Origin: Candidatus Hydrogenedentota bacterium
Lineage (GTDB): Bacteria; Hydrogenedentota; Hydrogenedentia; Hydrogenedentales; SLHB01
Reading direction: 5' to 3'
NCBI GenBank assembly: GCA_963668025.2
Contig: CAXXTH010000023.1
Coordinates: 352,001-416,000, forward strand
Length of the DNA: 64,000 nucleotides
In this document: piece by piece, positions 2,216-16,298 of the stretch
Layout: the number at the start of each line of letters is the position of its first letter
Numbering within the stretch: position 1 is the stretch's first letter
The notes under the pieces: generated by a model
What the model saw: the letters and a program-made list of their open reading frames with translations, nothing else
What the model was told of the DNA's origin: nothing
Databases searched by the model: none
Position numbers and translations under genes: made by a program

Positions 2216-2629
2216 GTTCAGGTTCTCCCTACTGAACGGCTGTTTATCTTTCTACCATAAAGACTATAAAAAGAAGATTTTGTGACAAACTGGGCGAATT
2301 CATGCATCTCAAAATGGAAAGAAATGTTCCTGCATCAGACAACAAATAGCATCGTTGCCATATGCACATAAACAAACGGATTATTTGAACCTCCTTGTGC
2401 CTTGGTGTGATAGTGTAAAAAGCAGAGCAAGCCCTTCTATTGCCTCATGTTCATCCACTGTTCTCTGCGAGCCAGCGATTCCGCAAGCGAGGGTTTGTGT
2501 GAGGGGGTAAGTTCTTAGGAGCGGCGGGCTTAGGCGGGCTCACCTTTTCCCGATCAGATTCGCATTCATCTTTGACCTTGACTTTTGGCTTCTGTCTTGT
2601 ATATTATAAGGGTACAAGATGGAGGTTGC

Positions 2630-2965
2630 ATGTCGCGTACACAAATGTCCACCCAAGAGCGCCAATTTCGGTCCCGCTTGGCGCAATTGGTTCACGAACG
2701 CCCCCTGATTCGAGCCACGCTCAATCCGCGCTCGGTCACCTGCGGTAAAGCAGGGTGCCGCTGCGCCAAAGGGGAAAGACACCAGGCCCTGTATCTGGTG
2801 TGTACGGTGAAGGGGAAACGGCGGCAGATGTTTGTACCCCCGTCGTTGGAGGAAGAGGTCCGCGCGTGGGTGAGGAACTACCAGACCGTGCAGGAATTGC
2901 TGGAGAAGCTGTCGGAGGACGCGTGGCAGAAGCTCAAGGAGCTTAAGGAACAGCCTGATTCTTAG
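2630..2965 (+). CDS. DUF6788-like IS-associated small protein with CGKxxCxC...H Zn-binding motif
   Basis: GGAGG RBS, ATG 2630; VTCGKAGCRCAKGERH..LYL..GKRRQMFVP..VRNYQTVQELLEKL. Confidence 0.8.
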   Translation: MSRTQMSTQERQFRSRLAQLVHERPLIRATLNPRSVTCGKAGCRCAKGERHQALYLVCTVKGKRRQMFVPPSLEEEVRAWVRNYQTVQELLEKLSEDAWQKLKELKEQPDS

Positions 2966-4202
2966 TCGCCTTCTTAAATATGGGGAAAAGGTCTACGATC
3001 TGCGCAATCAACTCAGGCGGATTACGGACCGGCGTAAGGCCCCGGAAATCCCTACGATGCGGGTAGTCATGGGGGTGTTTTTCACGTTGTGCGTGCGCCT
3101 GGGCAGCTTCAACGGCGTCGAGGAGGCGTTTGGGAACATAGAATCCAAACGCAGCCGGTGGCATGGCTGGATGGACGGAAACCTGCCCAGCGCCGATCGT
3201 CTGGGTGAGGTGTCGGCCCTGATGGATTTGGACACCGTGCGCGGGCTGCTATACGAACACTACCGTCAGCGCAAGCGGAAAAAGACGTTGCGCCCTTTAC
3301 CCGGCAACCTGCAGGTGCTCATCTTGGACGGCCACGAGATGTGCGCCAGTTATCTGCGCTCTTGCCCTGAATGTTCGGAACGCGAAGTAACCTATGGCAA
3401 GGGCAGGGAAAAACGGACTCAATACTACCACCGCTATGTCATGGCCTATCTTTTGTGCGACGGCGGGCGCATGCTGCTGGACTTGGAACTACAGCAGAAA
3501 GGAGAAGGCGAAATCGCCGCCGCCATGCGACTGCTCAAACGGCTGTTGCAGGTTTGTCCGCGCGCGTTCAACGTGGTTGCGGGCGACGCGCTGTATCTCG
3601 ATCCCCACCTATGCACGCTCATTCTGAACCACAAAAAGGATTTCATCGCCGTCCTGAAGAATGAGAACCGCGGCCTGATTCAAGACTTCCGAGCCCTACT
3701 CGAAGCCGGAAAGACGGATCCTGTACCCTTCAGCTATGGCAAAAGACAGTGCGTATGCCACGACATAAAGGGTTTTGACTCCTGGACCCAGCTCGGACGC
3801 AAGGTACGGGTCGTGCGCTCCTTCGAGACATGGACCGTGCGCCGTCAACGAGGCAAAAAGGAAGAGCGAGATCAAACCCTCACCAGTGAATGGCTTTGGG
3901 CCGCCAGTTTGAGTGCTCAAAAGGCCACTACCACTGCGATTGTGCTTATCGGCCACGGCCGATGGGACATCGAAAATCACGCCTTCAACGAACTGGCCGG
4001 ACTTTGGCACGCCGACCACGTCTACCACCACGACCCAAACGCCATCGTGGCGATACTCCTCCTACTCATGCTGGCCTACAATCTGTTCCATGCCTGGCTC
4101 ACTCGTGACATCAAACCCGAACTTCGTCAGGGACATACGGCTCTATACTTCGCCAGACTCATCGCCGCTGAGTTCTACAGCCAGTTGCGCCCGCCCACAT
4201 AG
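2955..4202 (+). CDS. DDE transposase (DDE_Tnp_1-like); probable CTG start at 2955 (first ATG 3057)
   Basis: ILDGHE, VAGDALY, GRWDIENHAFNEL motifs; frame open upstream of the ATG, encoding LILSRLLKYGEKVYDLRNQLRRITDRRK. Confidence 0.85.
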   Translation: MILSRLLKYGEKVYDLRNQLRRITDRRKAPEIPTMRVVMGVFFTLCVRLGSFNGVEEAFGNIESKRSRWHGWMDGNLPSADRLGEVSALMDLDTVRGLLYEHYRQRKRKKTLRPLPGNLQVLILDGHEMCASYLRSCPECSEREVTYGKGREKRTQYYHRYVMAYLLCDGGRMLLDLELQQKGEGEIAAAMRLLKRLLQVCPRAFNVVAGDALYLDPHLCTLILNHKKDFIAVLKNENRGLIQDFRALLEAGKTDPVPFSYGKRQCVCHDIKGFDSWTQLGRKVRVVRSFETWTVRRQRGKKEERDQTLTSEWLWAASLSAQKATTTAIVLIGHGRWDIENHAFNELAGLWHADHVYHHDPNAIVAILLLLMLAYNLFHAWLTRDIKPELRQGHTALYFARLIAAEFYSQLRPPT

Positions 4203-4469
4203 CGGCTTCTCAGCCCACAACCGCTCCGTTCCCAGCCGACCGGCCAACACCCGGACCGCCCTACTATTGCTCCTACGCCCACTTTTCACTCCCCCGCCCC
4301 TGATACGACCCCTCTGGCGCGGCCCCACTGCCTGGCAAAAACGCCCTTGGCGTCTTTCCGAAACTGCTCCGTACTCAAAAACGCCCTTTGCCCCAGCAAA
4401 ATGCGGTCCGTGGCCCCACCTTGCGGAATCGCTGTCTGCGAGCAGGGCCTGCGTCAAAAAAGTGGGTTT

Positions 4470-5815
4470 TCATCCGGTTCTTTGTTCCCAATACTCCTCG
4501 AAGCGATTGGATTGAATAAGGCATCGCAACGCCGTAATGGCATTTGCGCCACGGACGGTCCATTCCATACCGGAGTGCTTCATACGCTGGCCAACGACCG
4601 TCCTGCACGCCGCTTCAATGACTCCCGAGCCAACGAATAGTCCCTTGGCAAAAAATCGTTGTAGCGCATGCGTTCTTTGTTCGTCTCAAAATAGCCGATG
4701 GCGGTAACGGCTTCTTTGGCATCCGGCCCATTGTTTGGCAACAGCACGGCGGCTTCTTCCACGATGGTTTCGATCTTTCCCTCATCCAGATCGTCCCACC
4801 ATTTGCCCTTGTACAAGGCCAAACGTTTTTCGTCGCGTCCAAACAACAATTTGCACAGGTTCCCGAGATGCTCGCGCGCGTGATACAAGTCGACTACGTG
4901 GATGGCGGCGTGAAAATGGGTTTGTACGATGTTTCGTATCCATTCGGCCCCATCGGTGAGGCATACGACGCGTTTGGCCCTGAACAATCCGCGGCGGACG
5001 GCCTCGGCGTAGATGCGCCATTGAAACTGTTCGGACGTCTCGATGGCGCCCACGAAACTGGCGGAGCCCCTATCCCGGATGGGGCGGCCTTTTTCGTTGA
5101 AGGCGGTTTGAGAAAAAACGCATCCGATTTTCACCTCGCGGGTTTTGGGCTTGCCGTTTTGATATTTTCCCTTGCGGCCTTCGAGCGCCTCGGGCACCAT
5201 GGGAACGCCGCTGCCGTCGAACTCGATGTAAAGGGTCTCGATAGTTTTGGCGGCATCGGGAGGCGGCGGTTCCTGGAATCGGATACGGTCCCGTTCTTGC
5301 GCGAACCAGTGGGCGGCTTGCTGGCCGGTCTGTTCCGCGATACGCTCACAGTCCTTGCGGCTGATCACGAGTCCGGCGGCTGCTTTCAGTTGTTGCGACA
5401 CCCTTTTGAATGGGGCGTCGCTGGCGAAATCCGCCACGAGACGCCGCACGCCCGGCGAATAGCGCGTGTTGGCGACATCGAGCTCCTCGTCGCCGGGATA
5501 CCGCCATTTGCCGCACCGGGGGCACCGGTAGGCGGTGCGCGTAAAGCGGATCTTGCCCAAAAGAGTGACGATGGTTTTTGTCTTCAGGCCACGGCTTTTC
5601 ATTACCGCCATGCATGAGCAACGCGCTTTTTCCCCGCGCCGGCCCACGCCCACCTTTCTTAAAAAGGCATCGAGCGCCTTGGCCCCTCCCATGAGGGCCG
5701 CGCCGCGCAGGGCTTGTTCCAATGCTTCGAGATCCGTTCCCGCCGCGCGTTTTGCCGCGTTGAAAATCCGCGTTACTTCGGCGTCTTTTTCGATGGCGGC
5801 TTGCGTTTTTTTTTT
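4470..5815 (-). pseudogene. ISKra4 transposase, frameshifted near its C-terminus
   Basis: YIEFDGSGVP, REVKIG, LTDGAEWI, DLYHAREHL motifs; the conserved tail GSGVIEAAC..QRMKHSGMEW lies in another frame after an A6 run at about 4650. Confidence 0.8.
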
Positions 5816-6155
5816 TGAGGGCGTCTTGTTCGGCGCTCTGCATCCGTTCCAGTTCGCCCAGTTCTTGGGCCACCGACTCGAATTGTCTGCATACATCCCG
5901 GAAACGTTTATAGTTTTCCTCATCCTGACGCGCGCGGTTCAATTCTTGCTCGCCGCAAATGCGTTCGCTCACGGTCTTATTGTTTTTCTTGCTTGTCCAT
6001 AAGTAATAGGGTCCGCGTAACTCTCGCGTTTTTTTCCCGTCCTTGATAGAGGGAAACCATTGTTCATTGAGGGATCCTTTTCTCAAGGTTCGTATTTCGC
6101 CCAATTGATCGAGCAAGTCCAAGCGTTTTTCTTCCAGCGTGCGTTTATTGGCCAT
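5806..6155 (-). CDS. DUF6788-like N-terminal ORF of ISKra4, joined to the transposase frame at an A11 slippery run
   Basis: RKGSL..GPYYLWT..KTVSERI..ENYKRFR; T11 at 5806-5816; AGGAG RBS upstream. Confidence 0.75.
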
Positions 6156-6330
6156 GATTGGTTCTCCTCTCTATTTATTGTAGTAATCTTACTACATACA
6201 TCGGGCCAAAAAAAGGGGGGGGAAAACGAAAACCCACTTTTTTGACGCAGGCCCTCGCGAGCACGAAAAGTGGACACATCCAGGTGCGCTATGCTAGGAT
6301 ATCGACCGATTAACGTTTCGCCAACATAGT

Positions 6331-6406
6331 GCGCCCGTAGCTCAGTGGATAGAGCGCTTGCCTCCGGAGCAAGAAGTCGCGCGTTCGAATCGCGCCGGGC
6401 GCGCCA
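6331..6406 (+). tRNA. tRNA-Arg(CCG)
   Basis: GCGCCCG acceptor stem, TAGCTCAGTGGATAGAGC D arm, CTTGC-ctCCGga-GCAAG anticodon arm, GTTCGAATC T loop, encoded CCA. Confidence 0.97.
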
Positions 6407-6421
6407 TATAACATATTCTTC

Positions 6422-6451
6422 CCCAAGGACTTACGCAAACAAGTCCTTGGG
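6422..6451 (+). terminator. Hairpin downstream of the tRNA
   Basis: CCCAAGGACTT-8 nt-AAGTCCTTGGG followed by TCTTGTTTT. Confidence 0.6.
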
Positions 6452-6517
6452 TCTTGTTTTACTGACAACACTTGCGACAACATCATCTGTCTGCTTGTTG
6501 ACATGGAGGATGTTGTC

Positions 6518-7716
6518 ATGGCCTCATTTCATCAGTGCGGCGGTATCTACTAAGGAGTCGCGTCAAAATAACTTACCGATTTTCTCCCACCACTCGGAAA
6601 GGAAGCGGTAATTCCTATCGCCATGAAAATTGCGTTGAATGCGAAAAAATAGTCAAGTTATTTTGACACGCCTCCTAAGTAAAATTTCGGCATAACGGGA
6701 AATGGGTCTATCGGAGCCTCGACACCAAAAATAAGCGCCAGGCCCTTACCGAAAAAGCACAAATTGAAGCCTCTCTAGCCGAGGAAGCACCCAAGCCTGC
6801 CGTCCACCGGTCCAGCAAACGCGATATTCCCCTAGACGATCTCATCAAAGAGTATACGAAATGGGCCGAGAAACACCGCCGTCCAGCGATCATATATAGC
6901 AGACAACGAGCCGTGAAACTATTCCAGGATGTCCACCCAAACATTTCCACCCTGAAAGCCATAAAACCCGAACATATCGAAACCTTTAAGGCAGCTCTTG
7001 CCAAAGGCCATAAACCCCGCACGCCAAACGAAGCCTTGGGAGCCCTGCGCGCCTTGGTGAGCCGCGCCATCCGTCTTGGCCTCTATTCCGGCCCGAATCC
7101 CTTCACCGGCGTCGAAATGCTACCTGACCGCCGCAAAGCCCCCGAATGGCTCTCTGCCGAACAAATGGAATCGGTTATGGACGCTGCCACCAAACACAGT
7201 CGAAACGCCCTATTCTTCTTTGGCTTATGCATCTTCGCCGGACTCCGCAAAATGGAAGCCATTATGACGCGCTGGGAATGGATTGACTTGCAGGCAGGGC
7301 TACTCCACGTTCGAGGCTCAGAAGACTTCTTCATCAAAGATGGAGAAGACCGCACCATCCCCTTGCATAGCCGGTTACGCGCCATTCTCGAACCATACCA
7401 TGAATCCGAAGGCTATTTGATTGCCCCCGAAAAGTTAAAACTTGGAAAGCATCGGTATCGCTTCGAGATCAGTAAGACCTTCACCGCCGTAACAAAAGCT
7501 GCGGGCGTACACCCCTGGTGCCACCCGCACATCCTTCGCCACACCTTCGCCAGCCAGCTCGTAAGCGCCGGCGTCGAACTCTACAAAGTCAGCAAATGGC
7601 TGGGCCATGCCGATTTCGCCACCACCCAAATCTACGCCCATTTGCGCCCGCAAGACCCCGACATCGAGCGCCTGGCCGCCGCTCCATCACGGCATCTCGA
7701 CCCCGAGCGCCTTTAA
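6518..7716 (+). pseudogene. Tyrosine recombinase/phage integrase interrupted at codon 12 by a MITE
   Basis: GGAGG + ATG 6518 MASFHQCGGIY*; the frame resumes after the MITE (VKFRHNGKW..) in frame with ORF 6913-7716 carrying GLRKME, HILRH, LGH, TQIY. Confidence 0.88.
6554..6675. mobile_element. 122-bp MITE, copy 1
   Basis: 21-bp imperfect TIR GGAGTCGCGTCAAAATAACTT, TAA on both flanks, near-identical to 12311-12432. Confidence 0.9.
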
Positions 7717-8310
7717 CACGGGCGCACACCCCACATCACGCGAGACGGCATGCGGGTCAAATTTCCCGTCCTGCACGTACTTCCCGCGTTTGTAGTGCGT
7801 GCTCCCGCACCAGAGATAGGGCGTGCAAACTCCATGGCTCCTGTACCCGAAACCGTTATACGCTTCCAACTGGTACATCATGCCAACGACGGACCAATCC
7901 GTCCATTTGTCAAGCCCCATATATGTCAGGGCATCCTTCGCGGAATACGCCCAAGTATACGGAGGCGTTCCCGCCACCGGCCTTCCCGACGGCACATGTA
8001 CTGTTTTCCTGGCTAGCGAATCCCCGTTATGCAGATGCCGCGTGAAATTCAGATCCGCCTCCATCATGTGTACAACGGCCGTGAACTGCCACGAAATGCC
8101 CAGCGCATCGCTTGCATCCCCATACTGCGATATGTGCTGCATGATGCGCCTCGCCCAATTCGCCGCGGGCTCAACCGCCCAAGGCTCAATTTCACACGCC
8201 CCCCACATCTCCCCGTAAACGACCCGAATCGAGTCATTCAGCCTGAGTGGAGCCCGCGTCACCGCCTTGGCATATTTCGGCATAGGCCGCGTTTCATCGA
8301 GCATTTTCAT
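7687..8310 (-). CDS. Lysozyme-family endolysin (COG5526-like)
   Basis: VHMMEA, LHNGDSL..TVHVPSGRP, LEAYNGFGY, TPYLW, GKYVQDGKFDP motifs; prophage context. Confidence 0.8.
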   Translation of the reverse strand: MKMLDETRPMPKYAKAVTRAPLRLNDSIRVVYGEMWGACEIEPWAVEPAANWARRIMQHISQYGDASDALGISWQFTAVVHMMEADLNFTRHLHNGDSLARKTVHVPSGRPVAGTPPYTWAYSAKDALTYMGLDKWTDWSVVGMMYQLEAYNGFGYRSHGVCTPYLWCGSTHYKRGKYVQDGKFDPHAVSRDVGCAPVLKALGVEMP

Positions 8311-8322
8311 TCCTCGCGCCTC

Positions 8323-8604
8323 CTATGCCTTCTTAGGCTTTTTCTTCGCATCAAACGGAAGCACCCCATCATTCTTATTCGCTTCCGGCTGTGCTGATTC
8401 CGTCCCCGCTTCCGGCTTCGTTTCCGGCATCGGCGCCGGATTCCCCATCGGCGGAGCCACTATCACCGACAACCTCCTCGCCGCCGCCGCCGTCAATTCG
8501 TGTATCTCCGCTGGCGCTGCCGCTTTCCTCGCCATCGAGAACAGAAGATCCAAGTCCTGCATCGCTTGCGTCATCTGTGGTTGTTGCATCGGTTGTTGAG
8601 ACAT
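8323..8604 (-). CDS. Hypothetical phage protein
   Basis: GAGG RBS before ATG 8604; MSQQPMQQ..DAKKKPKKA. Confidence 0.6.
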   Translation of the reverse strand: MSQQPMQQPQMTQAMQDLDLLFSMARKAAAPAEIHELTAAAARRLSVIVAPPMGNPAPMPETKPEAGTESAQPEANKNDGVLPFDAKKKPKKA

Positions 8605-8821
8605 TATTTGCTTCCTCAAGAATCGTGGCAGCCAGATCACTCCGTCCGGCTTGCTCAGCCAAATCCGCCGCACTCGTCAACAACGTTGCTGCCGGTACTA
8701 GCGGACATAATTCAACTTCCAACGCAGCCACTTCCGCGATCTCGCGGTTGGCCGATATCCATTCCGCCACGCGGCTCGAGGCCTGCCGTACGGCGGAAGA
8801 AAGCTCGTCTAGGGTTGCCAT
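8375..8821 (-). CDS. Hypothetical phage protein (3' half overlaps the next gene)
   Basis: GGAG RBS right after the tail-fibre stop; helical N-terminal half, low-complexity acidic C-terminal half. Confidence 0.5.
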   Translation of the reverse strand: MATLDELSSAVRQASSRVAEWISANREIAEVAALEVELCPLVPAATLLTSAADLAEQAGRSDLAATILEEANNVSTTDATTTDDASDAGLGSSVLDGEESGSASGDTRIDGGGGEEVVGDSGSADGESGADAGNEAGSGDGISTAGSE

Positions 8822-8832
8822 GGTTGATCTCC

Positions 8833-11118
8833 CTATGCCTTGGTGTATTCCAGGCTTATCGACATAACATAAATTGACGTTGTACTATCTGATTGAAAAT
8901 TTAAAGCGCAACACTCATTTGCCGTCAGGCCGGTAGGAGCATTTATGGTTACAAAATCGATATAAATATTATCCTCATCTATGGAGGTAGGAACCGTGGC
9001 AAAATCTGAATACGTAAGAGATTCCGTTCTCGAATCACCGTCGCCTAGGCACCGCAAGCAATACTCCCAATCAATTGCCGTGCCCGGTTGCGCCACAACG
9101 TAATAAGCAACACGTAGAGTAACCGCCTCTCCGTTATAGTCAGAAGGCATTACGAAGGATGTCCCGAATGGTTGAATTCCCGCCAACGCCGGACCAACTT
9201 TTGTATATGCAATCTCTGGATATTCACCAGACGCCCAAGAAGGATTAGGCAAAGGAATCGGTATATACCGCTTGGTTAGCGTCCCCAGTTTCGTATTCGT
9301 GATGGTAAATCCATCATTCTCGACATCTGCTGTTAGAGAAATTCCAGTCCCAGAATTGATGCGCAGAGTATCATCCGCTGCATCAGCAACAAGGGAGGAC
9401 AAACTGTTGAGCGTCACGGTCTTGAAGGCCAGCGCCGCATAGGCGTGAGTATGATCGGCCAAACTTATTGCCGTGCCATCCCCGCTTGTGGTTGGTGTGG
9501 ATGTAGTCACTCGAAGCTCGCCAGCATTACCGATGAAAAGAAAAGTGCTCTTTGCGGAAGTCCAATAGGCATCGAGTTGAATCGATCCAGAATTAATGCC
9601 GCCACGCTTGGCAATGAGACGGCCAGTATTCGTATCATCATCACCGATGGTTAAAATACCATCCGTGGCCATCAATACCTTGCCTGTACCGGCAGATCCA
9701 CTTGCGGGAGCGCTCGTTTTAAAGGCCAGCTTGCCGTAATCATCCACCCAAAGGTAGCCGGTATAGTCCCCATTCGCGGATTGAAGACTTGCATAGGCGC
9801 AATTCGTGGTGCCGCTGCCTCGATAGAGGTTCAACATCCCGCGTTCGGTCCCGGCCACTCCAACCGTGAGCAAACCGCCCAGGACAGTAATATCTCCCGC
9901 GCTGATGATGTTGTTCCCGGTATAGCCCACTGGCTCAAGAGGCCGCTGGGCAAGATACAGCGCCTCGAACTCACCTGCCGTCAAAGCCCTTGACCAACAA
10001 GAGGCCTCGTCCAAAGATCCATGATAGCGTAGAGATGCAGATGTGCTGATTGCGCCCAAGTAAAACGCAACGTTTTCACTACAATCTGCGCTTCCACGAG
10101 TTGCGCTCGCTCGCACAACGCCATCCACGTAAAGGTACACTTTGTTTGAGTCATTATCTGGCCCCTCTGCCGCCAATCCTATTTGGTGCGGAAGGCCGTC
10201 CGTGATGTCCACTGCATATGTCAACGTATCTCGGTCTGACACGGCAGTACCGCGCCCAAATGCAGCGTTTACGTACCCGTTCACGTCAATGTATAGAAAT
10301 ATTCCCCTATAACAGTCAGAAGGATTTGTCCAACCCATGATGTAATGTGCGGCTGTTTTATACGTGCTCTTTATCCAGCAGGCCATTGAAAAGGCCACAT
10401 TGCCATAGGCAAGTGGAATGGCGGTTCCACAAGTCACATACCCGTTTCCGTCAAAAGTTGCTGCCGATCCGAACTTCACAACGCCCGCTGTTGTCCCACT
10501 TCCAGCATGCGTTCCATTTCCACCGTTTGCCGTATAGTCGATGAGGGTTCCAGTGATGGAATCCATGCGCCAAAGTCGAAGCAAGCCCTCAACAGCTACG
10601 CCAAGTGAACTCGCCGGGCGGGCCAGTCCTACCAAACCGTATGTGCTTGCGGGCTTTTCAGCAAGATGGTCAGTCGTGTCAAAGAACGGAACCGTCCCCG
10701 CAGCACCGCCAAGAGCGAGTTGCGCCAGAGTGGGGTCCGCCGCCTGATACGAACCTGATGGCTAGTACACCCCAGTATGAGTATGGTTCCCTGCAGCCAC
10801 ATCATCGGCCCCAGTTCCAACATCCGCCGCTGCCGCTGCGCCAAGTCCAAGGTTATCCCAAGCATCTGCTTCCCAAGCTACGAATACAGGGTCCAATTCG
10901 GTGAATTCAGTGAGATACCCCGCACTTGCATGATTCCCCCAGCCATACGCCGCATCCCAAGCCGTGATATCCCCACTCTCGATCCCCGCCGCCGCCGATG
11001 CCTCGAACACCGGATCCGTCTCATCCGTCAGATACGTCCCAGAAAGCCCAAGCGTGGTCCGCATTGCCGCCTCATCCGCATCATCCAGCAGCGTCTTCGC
11101 AAACGCGCTGGCATATAG
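8833..11118 (-). pseudogene. Phage tail fibre with LamG/concanavalin-like domain; 5'-truncated, with an internal TAG at 10762-10764
   Basis: SAFAKTLLDDADEAAMRTTLGL, ETDPVF and HTH tail-fibre motifs; ORFs 10762-11064 and 8833-10635 share a frame; LamG motifs FSMACWIK, LYVDG, GSLDEA. Confidence 0.8.
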
Positions 11119-11132
11119 CAGGGCAGACGCAT

Positions 11133-12290
11133 CTAAAATCCCAATAATTGCTGGAGAAACGGCATATCAAGTGCGGCGAATATCCTTTTTTGTCGTTGCG
11201 AAATATTCTCTTCCGTGTTCCTCTTGATGAGGTTGAGTGCGATTCGGCGCAGCGTGGCCAGATTCTGTGCGGCGTTTTTGGTCCGGGCGCGGCTTTGGTC
11301 TTCCCGGAAGGTCACGTCGAGAGACCAATGGAGCTGGTTTTCGACACCCCAGTGGCCCCGCACGGCTTTTGCGAAGGCCTCAATATCACGAGGAAGGCTG
11401 GTGAGGAAATAGCGGCGTTCGATGGTGTTTTTGCCTTTGACGCAGCGGATCGACTCGACCATGCCGATGCTGCGCAAGCCCTTCCACCGCTTTTTGTCTG
11501 CCACCCAGTCAATGTCGGTGGATTGCCAGTAGCGGCGCGTTTCCATGCGCCCATGGTCTTTTTCGAGCGTTTTGGAGCAGGCCATGGTGTTGGGGGCAAC
11601 GGTAGTGGCGGGTTCGGAAGCGCAGGGCAAAACAGCGTCGGCAAAGAAATCCTGGACCTCTTGGTGAACCGTAGCATGGTTGCCTTTGAGGGCTAGGACA
11701 TAATCAGCTTTCTTCTCGATGATCTGGGCGGCGATGTCTTTCTGGCATCCCATGGCGTCAATGGTCACGATGCAGCCTTGAAGGGCCAACGCCCGCAACA
11801 GTTCGGGGATGGCGGTGATTTCATTGGACTTATCGTCCACCTTAACCTGTCCCAAGGCCAGCCCGTTTTGCGAAGCCCAGGCGCTGACAATATACGGGAT
11901 TGAATCGCCGTCATCCAAGGCTCGGCGCAACGCCTTTCCATCGATGGCAACGACTTCCCCCTGCAGTGCAGGGCAAATCCTTTGGACCCAGCGCACAAAA
12001 CAGTCCATAAAACAATCGGGGTCGATGGCGGAGAAAACCCGGTTGAAGGTATCGTGCGACGGGATGCCGTGAGGCAACTCGAGAAAGGTCTTGAGCCAGT
12101 CTCGTTTGATCCTTCCAAACAACGCCATGTCGTTGAATCCCTCGCCGCCGGTCAACATCGAACAAAGTCCGATAACCAGAATATCGGCCAGCTTATGGAA
12201 CCGCCTGCGGCGGACACGCGGATCGGGGATTTCCTCCAAGTATTCCATGATGCCGCGCTGTCTCGGAACGGGATGATGCTCATTGCCCAC
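11133..12290 (-). CDS. ISAs1 transposase
   Basis: IPDPR, GIPSHDTFNRVF, AIDGK, KSNEITAIP, IDAMGCQ, HWGVENQLHW; AGGAG RBS then GTG 12290. Confidence 0.95.
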   Translation of the reverse strand: MGNEHHPVPRQRGIMEYLEEIPDPRVRRRRFHKLADILVIGLCSMLTGGEGFNDMALFGRIKRDWLKTFLELPHGIPSHDTFNRVFSAIDPDCFMDCFVRWVQRICPALQGEVVAIDGKALRRALDDGDSIPYIVSAWASQNGLALGQVKVDDKSNEITAIPELLRALALQGCIVTIDAMGCQKDIAAQIIEKKADYVLALKGNHATVHQEVQDFFADAVLPCASEPATTVAPNTMACSKTLEKDHGRMETRRYWQSTDIDWVADKKRWKGLRSIGMVESIRCVKGKNTIERRYFLTSLPRDIEAFAKAVRGHWGVENQLHWSLDVTFREDQSRARTKNAAQNLATLRRIALNLIKRNTEENISQRQKRIFAALDMPFLQQLLGF

Positions 12291-12310
12291 GGCTTTATCT
12301 CCTGAGTTAA

Positions 12311-12432
12311 GGAGTCGCGTCAAAATAACTTACCGATTTTCTCCCACCACTCGGAAAGGAAGCGGTAATTCCTATCGCCATGAAAATTGCGTTGAATGCG
12401 AAAAAATAGTCAAGTTATTTTGACGCGCTTCC
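12311..12432. mobile_element. 122-bp MITE, copy 2
   Basis: Same sequence as 6554-6675 except two bases in the right TIR; TAA flanks. Confidence 0.9.
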
Positions 12433-12474
12433 TAAACGCTGGACTTTTTATATATATTCCTATATCATATTGCC

Positions 12475-12774
12475 ATGAAACAAACAAGCAAAATCCAGCG
12501 GCTGTTAGAAAAGATGGCGGCCATCGAGCGGATGGAACGCGGCAAGATCTGCGCGATGGCCGGCCGGCCCCACTACAACCATCAGACATGGCAAAACGGG
12601 CGTAACGTGGTGCACTACGTTCCCACCGACGAGGTGGAGGCCCTCCAAGAGGCCATTGATGGCTACAACCAATTCCGTAAGCTGGCCGAGGAATATGCCA
12701 ACGAAATCATCCGTCGGACACGCCAGGAAAAAGACAAAAACAAAAAACGGAAAAAGAATGGCAGGACAAGCTGA
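12475..12774 (+). CDS. DUF6788-like small protein inside ISAs1
   Basis: MERGKI..PHYNHQTWQNGRNVVHYVP..AIDGYNQFRKLAEEY, same pattern as the other two IS ORFs. Confidence 0.75.
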   Translation: MKQTSKIQRLLEKMAAIERMERGKICAMAGRPHYNHQTWQNGRNVVHYVPTDEVEALQEAIDGYNQFRKLAEEYANEIIRRTRQEKDKNKKRKKNGRTS

Positions 12775-12987
12775 TAGACATTATCCAGAATTCAGCATTA
12801 TTAGATGCGTCCGCCCTGATTCGTGGTAAAAGATGCTTGTGTCGGCTGCAAAAGAATATATAATAACGGCTCTATTGATCAGAGAGTTTTTTCATTCAGG
12901 AAGGAGGCTGCCAAGAACGTAGCAGGCTGTCACCGTGAAACATCCGTTATTTCGTAACGGCGTAGTAACTAAAAGGAGGAAATAAAT

Positions 12988-14574
12988 ATGAACGCAAAAG
13001 TCGGTGGAAGGGCTTTCGTAGCGGTTCTTTTTGCGGTTACGATGCTCTTTTTAGCGGCACAAGGGAGTGCGGAAGTGAAGGTTCCCCAGATTTTTGGCTC
13101 GAATATGGTGTTGCAGCGTGACATGCCGCTTCCGGTATGGGGATGGGCGGAGCCAGGTGAAGCAATTACGGTTCAATACGGCGATTCCACCGAAAAAACC
13201 ACGGCGGATGCCAAAGGCGAGTGGAAAGTAAAGCTGCCCGCGCAAAAAACGGGCGCTCCCCGTACGCTTACGGTCGCATGCAAAGACAAGACCGTCCAGT
13301 TTGAGAATGTGCTCATTGGCGAAGTGTGGTTCTGTTCCGGCCAGTCGAACATGGAGATGGGCATCCATATGTGCAATGATGCCGATCCGGAAGTCAACAA
13401 CGCCAATTACCCCGATATTCGCCTCTTTCGAGTAGAGCATGCCGTCAGCGGCATTCCTTCCCTTGACTGCGAAGCGCATTGGGATATCTGCTCCCCGCAA
13501 ACCATTAAAACGGGCGGATGGGAAGGCTTTTCTGCTGCGGCCTATTATTTTGGCCGCGAAATCCATAAAACCCTAGGCGTTCCCGTCGGGCTTATCCAAT
13601 CCGCATGGGGCGGCACCCGTGTCGAGCCATGGACCCCGCCCGTGGGTTTTGCCGAAGCGCCCGAGCTTAAGGACCTGGTGGCGGTCATCGATCAAGCCAA
13701 TCAAAAATATGCGGAGGCCATGAAGCCGGTATTCGGTGATTTCCAAGCATGGCTTACTGCGAGCGAACAGGCTGTTGCGGAAGGGAAGCTGTTCCCGCCT
13801 TGCCCGCCGCTTCCAAGGCATCCGCTCGAGCCGGATTTATACGGCGGCCATCCAGACCGGCCGACGGTGTTGTACAACAGTATGGTGTATCCCATTGCGC
13901 CGTTCGCCATTCGGGGCGCTTTATGGTATCAAGGCGAGTCGAACCTAGACGACCCGCTCTATGCCGAGAAAAAGGCTGCATTGATTAACGGCTGGCGCAA
14001 AATCTGGGGCGAGGGTGAATTCCCCTTCTATTTCGTCCAAATCGCCCCCTTTAATGGATATGACGACAAAGGCTGTGCCAATTATGGTGCGGACGCCCTT
14101 CCCATGTTGTGGCAAGAGCAATTAGCGGTCCTTGATGTGCCCAATACGGGCATGATTGGCACCTATGACATCACTGACCTGAACGACATTCATCCTAAAA
14201 ACAAGCAAGACGTCGGCAAGCGCCTGGCCTTGCTGGCTCTTGCGAAAACCTATGATAAAAAGGATGTAGTCTATTCCGGCCCCATGTACAAATCCATGGA
14301 TGTGAAAGACGGCAAAGCCGTTCTTCATTTCGAGCATGTGGGAGCTGGCCTGGTGTCCCGGGATGAAAAGCCCCTTTCGTGGTTCACCATCGCGGGAGAA
14401 GACAAGCAATTTGTTCCCGCCGAGGCCAAAATTGTTGGCGGCACCGTGGTGGTTTCGAGCGAAAAAGTCGCCCAGCCCGCCGCCGTGCGCTTCGGATGGA
14501 GCAAAGTGGCAGAGCCAAATCTTTCTAACAAAGATGGCCTTCCCGCATTGCCTTTCCGCACCGACAAATGGTAA
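12988..14574 (+). CDS. Sialate O-acetylesterase (SASA, SGNH) family, secreted
   Basis: Signal peptide, FGSNMVLQR, GEVWFCSGQSNM, WYQGESN, DIHPKNK. Confidence 0.93.
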   Translation: MNAKVGGRAFVAVLFAVTMLFLAAQGSAEVKVPQIFGSNMVLQRDMPLPVWGWAEPGEAITVQYGDSTEKTTADAKGEWKVKLPAQKTGAPRTLTVACKDKTVQFENVLIGEVWFCSGQSNMEMGIHMCNDADPEVNNANYPDIRLFRVEHAVSGIPSLDCEAHWDICSPQTIKTGGWEGFSAAAYYFGREIHKTLGVPVGLIQSAWGGTRVEPWTPPVGFAEAPELKDLVAVIDQANQKYAEAMKPVFGDFQAWLTASEQAVAEGKLFPPCPPLPRHPLEPDLYGGHPDRPTVLYNSMVYPIAPFAIRGALWYQGESNLDDPLYAEKKAALINGWRKIWGEGEFPFYFVQIAPFNGYDDKGCANYGADALPMLWQEQLAVLDVPNTGMIGTYDITDLNDIHPKNKQDVGKRLALLALAKTYDKKDVVYSGPMYKSMDVKDGKAVLHFEHVGAGLVSRDEKPLSWFTIAGEDKQFVPAEAKIVGGTVVVSSEKVAQPAAVRFGWSKVAEPNLSNKDGLPALPFRTDKW

Positions 14575-14711: not shown

Positions 14712-16298
14712 ATGAATAAAAACATCAGAGATCAATATAGTTTTGCATTGATATTTTCAATAGGGATGTTTTTACTCGCCATACACGGGAGTGCGGAAGT
14801 GAGAATGCCTCATATTTTCGGCTCGAATATGGTCTTGCAGCAGGGCATGCCGGTTCCGGTTTGGGGATGGGCTGAGCCAGGCGAAGCGGTTTCAGTTCAA
14901 TTCGACGATGTAAATAAAAAAACCACAGCGAATGCAAATGGCGAATGGAAAGTTAAACTACCTTCACGGAAAGTGGGCGAGCCTTGCTCTTTAGTGGCCG
15001 CCGGTAAAGACAACACGCTCCAGTTTGATAACGTACTCGTGGGTGAAGTCTGGTTCTGTTCCGGCCAATCCAACATGGCGATTGGCGTCGGTATGTGCAA
15101 CAATCCCGAACAAGAAATCGCAAACGCCAATTATCCGGATATTCGCCTTTATTCGGTGGAACAGGATGTCAGCGGCATTCCCAATAACGATGCGGGCGGC
15201 GCATGGTATATTTGCACGCCGCAGGCCATTAAAGAAGGTGGAAATCTGAGCTGTGGCGGCTTTTCCGCGGCGGCGTATTATTTTGGCAGGGAACTCCATA
15301 ATGCGTTGGGCGTCCCCGTTGGGCTTATTGAGTCCGCTTGGGGCGGCACTTGCATCGAGCAATGGATTCCGCCGGTAGGATTTGCCGAACAGCCTGGGCT
15401 TGAAGACTTCACAAAAGCCATCAGCCAAGCCAATCAACAATACGCGGAAGACATGAAGCCGTTCTTTCATGATTTCCAGGCATGGAAGAATGAACCGGCC
15501 GGTACGAAAGGGGAGTTTTACATGCCCCGTTTCCGCCTGCCTATACATCCTCTGGAACCTGCATCCTACGGCGGCTTTCCGGCCCAGCCCACGGTCTTAT
15601 TCAACAGCATGGTGAATCCAATACTACCGTTCGCCATACGAGGCGCGCTGTGGTACCAAGGCGAATCGAATAGGGATGACCCATTGTATGGCGAAAAGAT
15701 GCGGGCCCTGATTAACGGCTGGCGCACCGTCTGGGGCGAAGGTGAATTCCCCTTCTATTACGTCCAAATCGCTCCGTTCTCCGGGTATGAAGATACGTAT
15801 GAGCATTTCGGGGCGGACGCCATCCCCATGTTGTGGGAAGATCAAATGTCGGCATTAAATCTGCCCAATACAGGCATTGCTGGCACCTATGACATCACTG
15901 ACTTGAACGACATTCATCCCAAAAACAAGCAAGACGTTGGCAAGCGACTGGCGCTTCAAGCCTTGGCGAAGACCTATGGCCAGAAGGATGTGGTCTATTC
16001 CGGCCCCTTGTATAAATCCATGAAAATGAAAGACGGCAAAGCCGTGCTGCATTTCGACCATGCCGGCGCGGGCTTGATGTCCCGGGATGATAAGCCCCTT
16101 TCGTGGTTCACCATCGCGGGTGAAGATAAGCAATTCGTTCCCGCCGAAGCCCAGATCGTCAAAGACACCGTGGTGGTATCGAGCGATAAGGTCGCCCAGC
16201 CCGCCGCAGTGCGTTTCGGATGGAGCAAAATAGCCGAGCCGAATCTTTCCAACAAAGACGGCCTTCCCGCATTGCCATTCCGCACCGACAAATGGTAA
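14712..16298 (+). CDS. Sialate O-acetylesterase family, tandem paralog
   Basis: Same motifs, also 528 aa. Confidence 0.93.
   Translation: MNKNIRDQYSFALIFSIGMFLLAIHGSAEVRMPHIFGSNMVLQQGMPVPVWGWAEPGEAVSVQFDDVNKKTTANANGEWKVKLPSRKVGEPCSLVAAGKDNTLQFDNVLVGEVWFCSGQSNMAIGVGMCNNPEQEIANANYPDIRLYSVEQDVSGIPNNDAGGAWYICTPQAIKEGGNLSCGGFSAAAYYFGRELHNALGVPVGLIESAWGGTCIEQWIPPVGFAEQPGLEDFTKAISQANQQYAEDMKPFFHDFQAWKNEPAGTKGEFYMPRFRLPIHPLEPASYGGFPAQPTVLFNSMVNPILPFAIRGALWYQGESNRDDPLYGEKMRALINGWRTVWGEGEFPFYYVQIAPFSGYEDTYEHFGADAIPMLWEDQMSALNLPNTGIAGTYDITDLNDIHPKNKQDVGKRLALQALAKTYGQKDVVYSGPLYKSMKMKDGKAVLHFDHAGAGLMSRDDKPLSWFTIAGEDKQFVPAEAQIVKDTVVVSSDKVAQPAAVRFGWSKIAEPNLSNKDGLPALPFRTDKW

Follow-up and report, generated by a model that had tools for sequence, protein, structure and literature searches.

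A 64-kb window from the genome of a Candidatus Hydrogenedentota bacterium (contig CAXXTH010000023.1; the window is this whole stretch of DNA, and copy numbers refer to the same genome) carries three different insertion sequences (ISs), here called IS-A, IS-B and IS-C, each with a small open reading frame (ORF) belonging to the Pfam family DUF6788 (PF20586). On balance, we think it probable that the DUF6788 protein binds DNA as a dimer and regulates its own gene while repressing the transposase, with a palindrome at the promoter as its operator, in a cassette that is portable between families of DDE transposons. Membership in the family, conservation within ISs, the palindromes, exchange of the cassette and the geometry of recoding were all observed, and from these we infer DNA binding, dimerisation and repression.

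As a test of family membership, the whole-protein hidden Markov model score of each ORF was compared with the PF20586 gathering cut-off of 27.2 bits (the model has 103 positions). The original prediction, made from a shared sequence pattern, had called the three proteins DUF6788-like and placed their ORFs at 2630-2965, 6155-5806 and 12475-12774, where all three were found. Each protein scored above the cut-off: ORF1 of IS-A (2630-2965, forward strand, 111 aa) with 52.4 bits over positions 5-98, ORF2 of IS-B (an OrfA at 5817-6155, reverse strand, reading up to an A-run) with 50.0 bits over positions 3-99, and ORF3 of IS-C (a divergent stand-alone gene at 12475-12774, forward strand, 99 aa) with a marginal 28.0 bits over just positions 50-95. 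Thirty of 38 ORF3 relatives matched PF20586 at E ≤ 1e-3 and matched no other family, and a profile-profile comparison (hhalign) of the ORF1-type and ORF3-type subfamilies was weak (probability 20.9%, E 1.1e-3, 43 columns). In AlphaFold models, with predicted local distance difference test scores (pLDDT) of 87.8 for ORF1 and 88.7 for ORF3, the two proteins have the same order of elements, a helix, three strands and a long helix (ORF1: helix 8-23, strand 29-36, Cys/His loop, strands 51-60 and 63-69, helix 71-107; ORF3: helix 5-15, strands 24-27, 33-40 and 43-50, helix 51-96). The N-terminal helix and first strand of ORF3 are visible in the model only, outside the PF20586 match. The Cys/His motif C38-x4-C43-x-C45-x5-H51 is confined to ORF1 among the three, as had been predicted, and its C38, C43, C45 and H51 are invariant across 36 ORF1 relatives; ORF2 lacks the motif, and ORF3 has a shortened loop without it and a basic tail.

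The three elements belong to different transposase families. IS-A (2473-4434, forward strand, 1962 bp, 3 genome copies) is an unclassified DDE_Tnp_1 (IS4-like) element with terminal inverted repeats CAGCGATTCCGCAAG, flanked at 2464-2472 and 4435-4443 by the 9-bp target duplication TCTGCGAGC. Its transposase passed Pfam DDE_Tnp_1 (38.6 bits, cut-off 23) and fell below the cut-off of every NCBIfam IS4 model, the top one being NF033592 (31.1 bits, cut-off 115). IS-B (~4445-6254, reverse strand) is bounded by perfect terminal repeats of 27 nt, GGGCCTGCGTCAAAAAAGTGGGTTTTC, and belongs to the ISKra4 family, its transposase passing NF033572 (213.8 bits, cut-off 205). It begins directly beside the IS-A target duplication, and either IS-A inserted into the duplicated target of IS-B or the reverse took place. 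IS-C (11119-12818, reverse strand, 1700 bp, 5 copies, 18-nt terminal repeats CAGGGCAGACGCATCTAA) is of the ISAs1 family, its transposase passing NF033564 (416.9 bits, cut-off 70). The gene for this transposase (11133-12248, reverse strand) lies in a frame that is open from 12323, with the likely start at 12248, the Met of MEYLEE...

ISAs1 elements are described as having short terminal inverted repeats, target duplications of 8-10 bp and a single ORF, that of the transposase. IS-C fits the duplication length, with 9-bp duplications around 2 of its 5 copies, and departs from the single-ORF description in having a second, conserved, divergent ORF inside its repeats. Whether other copies of this ISAs1 element keep that ORF within the repeats, a point on which the prediction depended, could be answered from the genome, where all 5 copies of IS-C do so. 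A sister IS, 72% identical to IS-C over the transposase gene, is present in 22 copies bounded by both repeats. The 99-aa ORF is intact in 21 of these, and the transposase has at least 380 aa in 18; the left and right 9-nt flanks overlap by 8 nt in 11 of the 22, which we read as 10-bp target duplications. Between the small ORFs of IS-C and the sister IS, the proportions of differing non-synonymous (pN) and synonymous (pS) sites were 0.29 and 0.75, values that, on a comparison of sequences, indicate purifying selection with synonymous sites saturated.

Homologues of ORF3 in a large protein database numbered 170 at E ≤ 1e-3, mostly on contigs of 1-2 kb, and relatives were found at 50 loci from many phyla in reference genomes. 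When 46 ORFs neighbouring these 50 loci were scored against NCBIfam, 21 loci had a divergent ISAs1 transposase, complete or cut by a contig end, that overlapped the small ORF or lay within ~150 nt of it, and two more had a broken ISAs1 gene. At 7 loci (L035, L039, L046, L049, L054, L061 and L062) the divergent partner was an IS4-family transposase (NF033590, 328-362 bits). No transposase was found among the ORFs scored at the other 20 loci, several of which are cut by contig ends within ~500 nt of the small ORF.

In each of the three window elements, the start of the small ORF is preceded by a palindrome that overlies promoter-like sequence. IS-A has a promoter-like site, TTGACT-16-TATATT (2578-2605, forward strand), followed by a GGAGG ribosome-binding site and the ATG at 2630, and the palindrome TCTTGTA-N11-TACAAGA (2595-2619, forward strand) lies over the -10 box, its arm length being reached in 9 of 300 shuffles. 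Upstream of OrfA in IS-B, the palindrome TGTAGTAA-GA-TTACTACA (6179-6196, reverse strand; 7/300 shuffles) covers a TACAAT -10-like box, and a related half-site, ATGTAGTA, occurs in another ISKra4 element, L030. The promoter-like site of the IS-C small ORF, TGGACT-17-TATCAT (12440-12468, forward strand), has a -10 box that ends 6 nt before the ATG, and an imperfect palindrome, ATATAT-attc-CTATAT (12450-12465, forward strand), lies inside it.

The symmetry at the ISAs1-type promoter was evaluated in 30 cassettes, comprising the 21 ISAs1 loci, the 7 IS4-type loci and two window-genome elements. The sequence TTGAC-N5-ATATAG-N4-CTATAT was present in all 30 (17 perfect, 12 with one mismatch and 1 with two), and its end was 9-10 nt from the ATG in 22 of them (range 3-31 nt). 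On the small-ORF strand, 29 of the 30 elements had a sigma-70 promoter score of at least 9/12; the -10 box, in the right palindrome arm, stops 6-7 nt short of the ATG, which makes a leaderless small-ORF mRNA likely. A relaxed form of the pattern, searched against the whole genome, gave 35 matches, 27 of which were at small-ORF starts. One ISAs1-type element, L048, on a Candidatus Uhrbacteria contig from a metagenome-assembled genome (MAG), has two ATATAG-N4-CTATAT palindromes, one near each gene start.

Nineteen upstream regions from different lineages were also compared with dinucleotide shuffles. Perfect palindromes reached by no more than 9 of 300 shuffles were detected in 13 of the 19 regions (9 of these at 0-1/300), and two regions were borderline. 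The 15-copy element L028 has a perfect 13+13 palindrome, GTACGGAAGTATA/TATACTTCCGTAC, and the arms at IS4_1-linked DUF6788 genes are 10-16 nt long; the evidence for ISKra4-type palindromes comes from three window-genome elements and L084. Among relatives of ORF1 the arms differ yet remain symmetric (TCTTGTATA/TATACAAGA, TCTGACATA/TATGTCAGA, TCTGTTATA/TATAACAGA and TCTGGTA/TACCAGA). The half-sites were also considered as markers of IS ends, and this was ruled out, none being found elsewhere in IS-A, IS-B or the ISAs1 elements, ends included. Most IS-A relatives conserve a separate motif, GAGCAAATTCGCATT (window 2553-2570), on the upstream side of the promoter. It occurs inverted at both ends of L115 (2418-2436 and 4216-4234), ~60-70 nt inside the terminal repeats, and the right end of the window IS-A has a degenerate form only.

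The original prediction envisaged a portable, trans-acting module exchanged among DDE families. Its portability is borne out by a cassette that ISAs1 and IS4 elements share, while the trans-acting role stays conditional. The IS4-type elements have repeats of their own (CCTCGTTGTTCTACACATC), with the small ORF inside them, and a BLASTN comparison of ISAs1-type with IS4-type elements showed similarity limited to a stretch that runs from the palindrome into the small ORF and takes in most of it; the strongest match has 76% nucleotide identity over 274 nt (L031 2383-2656 against L035). Similarity confined to palindrome and ORF, in elements with different ends, shows that exchange between the two families took place. 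In a tree of the 30 small proteins, one change of partner accounts for the seven IS4-linked members (support 70/86), a number as low as this being given by none of 500 label shuffles, and thus a single ISAs1/IS4 exchange suffices, in either direction.

A survey of transposase partners, suggested with the prediction as a check, was carried out and showed DUF6788 genes adjoining ISKra4, ISAs1, IS4, IS1634, IS5 and IS630 transposases. The window genome has 48 six-frame PF20586 matches at E ≤ 0.01, 43 of them above the cut-off, and these fall in IS-A, IS-B, two further ISKra4-like elements, the 15-copy element and IS-C. In the 15-copy IS (L028; C10:746659-746934 and 14 other places), a zinc-type DUF6788 ORF overlaps the weak IS4/IS1380-like transposase. 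In the same phylum, a PF20586 match was present in 44 of 135 genomes; 40 ORFs beside 29 matches were scored, and the results, which concern adjacency only and not position inside terminal repeats, were divergent IS4_1 transposases at 6 loci plus one weak match, ISKra4 at 2, and IS1634, IS5, IS630 and ISAs1 at one locus each. Relatives of ORF1 were represented by 23 of 79 loci, and 11 of the 16 downstream ORFs scored there matched DDE_Tnp_1, all of them unclassified transposases. A profile search of 1.84 billion representatives returned 3035 clusters at E ≤ 1e-3, and since the best 150 of these 3035 are all 98-223 aa long, the family is overwhelmingly one of stand-alone small proteins. A single-protein search with the IS-B type found no relative in the genome contigs searched. 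On the chromosome of a Bryobacterales MAG (OZ253444.1; L123-L174), one IS has more than 40 copies, a strong burst of a single element; its DUF6788 ORF is ~50% identical to ORF1.

The three ORFs had been described as standing in three arrangements. The ISAs1 copy is indeed divergent and stands alone, but the ORFs of IS-A and IS-B are both OrfAs joined to the transposase by recoding, so that there are two arrangements. ORF1 had been taken to lie merely upstream of the transposase gene and to overlap it, a description that had to be replaced. The transposase frame of IS-A (2958-4202, forward strand, +1 relative to ORF1) is homologous to its relatives from nt 2958, beginning ILSRLLKYGEK..., a position that precedes the ORF1 stop by 8 nt and the first ATG, at 3057, by 33 codons. 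In the IS-A relative L120, a single fused ORF of 520 aa spans both parts, residues 1-107 being 64% identical to ORF1 and residues 110-519 being 57% identical to the window transposase frame from nt 2958. Five IS-A relatives share this junction, one frame ending ...D-S/T-stop and the next reading I-L-S/R-R-F. Homology from nt 2958, the fused L120 and the shared junction lead us to regard ORF1 as an OrfA joined to the transposase by recoding. At the junction itself (window 2955-2968, and likewise in L113, L115, L119 and L121), the DUF6788 frame reads GAU-(U/A)CU-UAG and the overlapping transposase frame AU(U/A)-CUU-AG. No homopolymer is present there; the junction is a candidate for +1 recoding at the stop codon, or possibly for a restart at AUU/AUA.

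The proposed frameshift link between ORF2 and the ISKra4 transposase held up. A slippery A-run (5806-5816, reverse strand; A11 in the window copy) joins OrfA to the transposase frame downstream of it (4580-5805, reverse strand). Among 11 copies, 9 have A9, with the frames out of register and an OrfA of 126 aa, one has A10 and a fused ORF of 524 aa, and the window copy, with A11, is out of phase (269 aa). The canonical IS-B, with A9, therefore depends on an additional base or on a -1 shift at A-AAA-AAA, and KK(G/K) is conserved at the position of the run in IS-B relatives. Variation in run length among otherwise near-identical copies reflects either slippage-prone variation or homopolymer sequencing error. 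IS-B has the two-ORF ISKra4 (ISMich2-like) organisation, in which the transposase is restored by a -1 shift from the upstream ORF; such frameshifting is reported for two-ORF members of the ISMich2 group in the available part of the source (Guerillot et al. 2014, PMC3942029). A search for longer, fused forms gave one protein among 7998 scored candidates, a 559-aa ISKra4 protein, which is weak evidence, and in the ISKra4 relative L030, DUF6788 and a complete transposase are separate ORFs. That the divergent ISAs1 copy is not a domain of a fused transposase, as the prediction had argued, follows from its opposite orientation, which makes fusion impossible.

On the basis of these observations we propose that a DUF6788 dimer would bind a palindromic operator at the promoter of the small gene, where it overlaps the -10 box. 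Where the gene is divergent, as in the ISAs1 copy, the same palindrome would also carry the -10-like box of a weak transposase-side promoter, and a single bound dimer would silence the small gene and the transposase gene together, keeping transposition at a low level. Where the genes are co-directional, recoding (+1 at the stop codon in IS-A, a -1 shift or A-run slippage in IS-B) would join OrfA to the transposase, and free OrfA would do the regulating, as it does in IS1-family and IS3-family elements. Operator and small gene together make a portable unit that has passed between families of DDE transposons. Targeting, regulation and anti-silencing had all been offered as roles in the original prediction; regulation is favored by the operator-like palindromes over the promoter, and nothing was found that points to targeting or anti-silencing. 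A wider version of the proposal, which we put forward tentatively, is that DUF6788 and its operator form a self-contained transposition-control cassette, with a DNA-binding fold new to solved structures, that has been captured repeatedly by unrelated DDE families (unclassified ones as well as ISKra4, ISAs1, IS4, IS1634, IS5 and IS630). In some it would be a divergent repressor whose dimer covers two back-to-back -10 boxes, in others a recoding-linked OrfA.

Several results weigh against a repressor. On the transposase strand of the ISAs1-type elements there is a -10-like box by symmetry and a poor -35, and only 6 of 30 reach a promoter score of 9/12, so control of the transposase from the palindrome is conjecture. 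Four of the 19 upstream regions (L083, L096, L101 and the window-genome IS-C type, which is imperfect) have no significant perfect palindrome. In IS-C, the transposase start is separated from the promoter of the small ORF by an inserted palindromic miniature inverted-repeat transposable element (MITE) of 122 bp (12311-12432, no strand assigned, with a TAA duplication). This MITE is absent from one copy, in L031, and is not part of the ancestral IS-C; because 4 of the 5 copies carry it, IS-C must have kept transposing after the MITE inserted, with the operator 122 bp apart from the transposase gene. The DUF6788 domain of IS-A and IS-B probably doubles as the N-terminal part of the transposase, an arrangement that would suit a positive role too. 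Searches for a known fold gave no support either. No match at E ≤ 1e-3 was obtained with Foldseek for the ORF1 and ORF3 models against the PDB, or for the zinc form (ORF1) against a viral structure library, and a wide VIA-align search with the ISAs1 form (ORF3) reached a top Z of only 5.8, to helical proteins. The lists from these fold searches were dominated by the long helix, and rows resembling a double-stranded RNA-binding domain (dsRBD) were weak (Foldseek: the ADAR2 double-stranded RNA-binding motif, E 0.3, TM score 0.19; Loquacious dsRBD1, E 1.0). Two designed mini-proteins (E 0.003 and 0.17) were the only matches of the family profile in a PDB sequence search, and these were rejected as chance. 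With no fold or PDB match, DNA binding by DUF6788 is read from its context.

The main rival, which we consider rather unlikely, is that DUF6788 is a positive cofactor of transposition or a transposase domain, serving in complex assembly, in binding of subterminal sites or in multimerisation through the long helix. The recoding that joins it to the transposase in IS-A and IS-B is what such a role would predict, as are the fused ORFs of L120 (520 aa), the A10 copy of IS-B (524 aa) and the 559-aa ISKra4 protein, and the motif GAGCAAATTCGCATT at both ends of one IS-A relative might be a subterminal site. However, the palindrome half-sites are missing from the IS ends, divergent forms are never fused, L030 encodes DUF6788 apart from a complete ISKra4 transposase, and the ISAs1 and IS4 transposases have N-terminal DNA-binding domains of their own (DDE_Tnp_1_assoc and IS4_FS_Nterm). 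It is improbable, in our estimation, that DUF6788 is instead a passenger that acts on the host, through anti-silencing, addiction or defence for example, and plays no part in transposition. Some loci in related genomes (e.g., L091, L098 and L104) do lack a recognizable transposase among the neighbouring ORFs scanned, yet the gene has a constant position beside the transposase start in six named transposase families, its operator is common to the transposase-side -10 box, its homologues are mostly on short, IS-sized contigs, and four of the proteins matched no PHROGs family.

Two further explanations concern the observations themselves, and we give very little credence to either. If the palindromes were unrelated to DUF6788, being DNA or RNA hairpins or the promoter symmetry of AT-rich DNA, then the frequent palindromes of AT-rich promoters and the 4 of 19 regions without one would be accounted for. 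Set against this are the position of most palindromes upstream of the predicted transcription start, so that just one arm would be transcribed, the variation of the arms by protein lineage with symmetry kept, and the movement of the palindrome with the ORF between IS families. Alternatively, the ISAs1 ORF might not be homologous to the other two, its match to PF20586 arising by chance, as could be argued from a score of 28.0 bits against 27.2 over half of the model, from the low hhalign probability, and from the small protein of the sister IS, which had no Pfam match at E ≤ 0.01. The subfamily as a whole argues otherwise, 30 of its 38 members matching PF20586 and no other family, and so do the equal order of predicted elements in the AlphaFold models and the same genomic role and operator architecture.

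An autoregulator of this kind would have counterparts among known systems. IS1 InsA and the OrfAs of the IS3 family (IS911 OrfA, IS2 InsA) are small IS regulators that share their N-terminus with a frameshift-made transposase. IS-A and IS-B resemble them in having a small upstream ORF from which the transposase is made by recoding, and in a putative DUF6788 site that overlaps the element's own promoter; in the models, the long C-terminal helix could also mediate multimerisation. Unlike those regulators, DUF6788 has no helix-turn-helix, being built of a helix, three strands, a long helix and an optional C3H zinc knuckle, its putative site is an internal palindrome rather than a terminal repeat, and its gene can also stand alone and divergent, and is shared by several transposase families that are unrelated. 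In Tn3 and gamma-delta, with the order tnpA-res-tnpR, divergent genes are controlled from a shared intergenic site. The divergent genes of ISAs1-type and IS4_3-type elements likewise flank a shared symmetric site from which both could be repressed, but DUF6788 has no recombinase domain, a single 16-bp palindrome takes the place of three res subsites, and the elements are simple ISs of 1.6-1.9 kb. As for the ISMich2 group, the IS-B transposase similarly needs a -1 shift from an upstream ORF, whereas the available part of that paper (PMC3942029) neither names this ORF as a domain family nor ties it to other ISs. The accessible portion of "IS4 family goes genomic" (PMC2266710) notes, without details, that in one subgroup the left repeat is separated from the transposase by additional DNA with ORFs of unknown nature. 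Among the 8.4 million papers and preprints of our literature search there was no mention of "DUF6788", PF20586 is in Pfam without a described function, and nothing relevant was found on accessory or divergent genes of ISAs1 or on small divergent ORFs that repress transposition.

The customary picture of an IS is that of a transposase flanked by two ends and regulated in a way peculiar to its family. Here, one small protein family and a palindrome resembling a binding site are met again in six or more named transposase families, as well as in unclassified ones, and for the ISAs1/IS4 pair the DNA itself documents exchange of the cassette. If DUF6788 is a repressor, a Pfam family of ~3000 sequence clusters would gain a function, a new DNA-binding fold would be added, and control of transposition would be modular and horizontally exchangeable. 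This would aid the annotation of ISs, in which second ORFs are often ignored, and help to explain control of IS copy number in IS-rich genomes, of which this is one. If the cassette reading is correct, ISs would swap whole regulatory modules, beyond catalytic or end-binding domains.

The original prediction had also remarked that all three elements lie near one tRNA gene, tRNA-Arg(CCG) at 6331-6406, but this proved incidental. The orfA-side end of IS-B is 16 nt from the -35 box of the promoter-like site in front of this tRNA (TGGACA-18-TAGGAT, 6271-6300). A promoter-like site lies 16-18 nt from the orfA-side end in 6 of 11 IS-B copies (five scoring at least 9/12 and one scoring 8) and beside the opposite end in only 1 of 11. 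Elements of the ISKra4 group are reported to insert upstream of promoter -35 boxes, in the part of PMC3942029 available, and promoter targeting of this type explains why IS-B lies beside the tRNA. IS-C is 4.7 kb away, in a genome that holds well over 60 IS copies. Proximity to the tRNA was therefore rejected as a clue to DUF6788, co-location being uninformative. Beyond tRNA-Arg(CCG) are a tyrosine integrase gene (6913-7716) and, on the opposite strand, small ORFs of unknown kind and a gene for a 600-aa protein with a LamG domain, and the region 6331-11100 looks like a small integrated island or prophage remnant. Directly after IS-C are two tandem genes for 528-aa sialate O-acetylesterase-like (SASA) paralogues (12988-14574 and 14712-16298).

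The 122-bp MITE found in IS-C is also present at window 6554-6675, and the genome contains 12 copies, with ends GGAGTCGCGTCAAAATAAC and TAA/TTA target duplications; no full-length parent was seen. Three copies of IS-C, in the window (flanks 11110-11118 and 12819-12827), at C10:3165-4738 and at C20:36524-40050, have cyclically permuted flanks. The right flank of the window copy equals the left flank of the C10 copy, the right flank of the C10 copy equals the left flank of the C20 copy, and the right flank of the C20 copy equals the left flank of the window copy, which points to recombination between IS copies, that is, to genome rearrangements.

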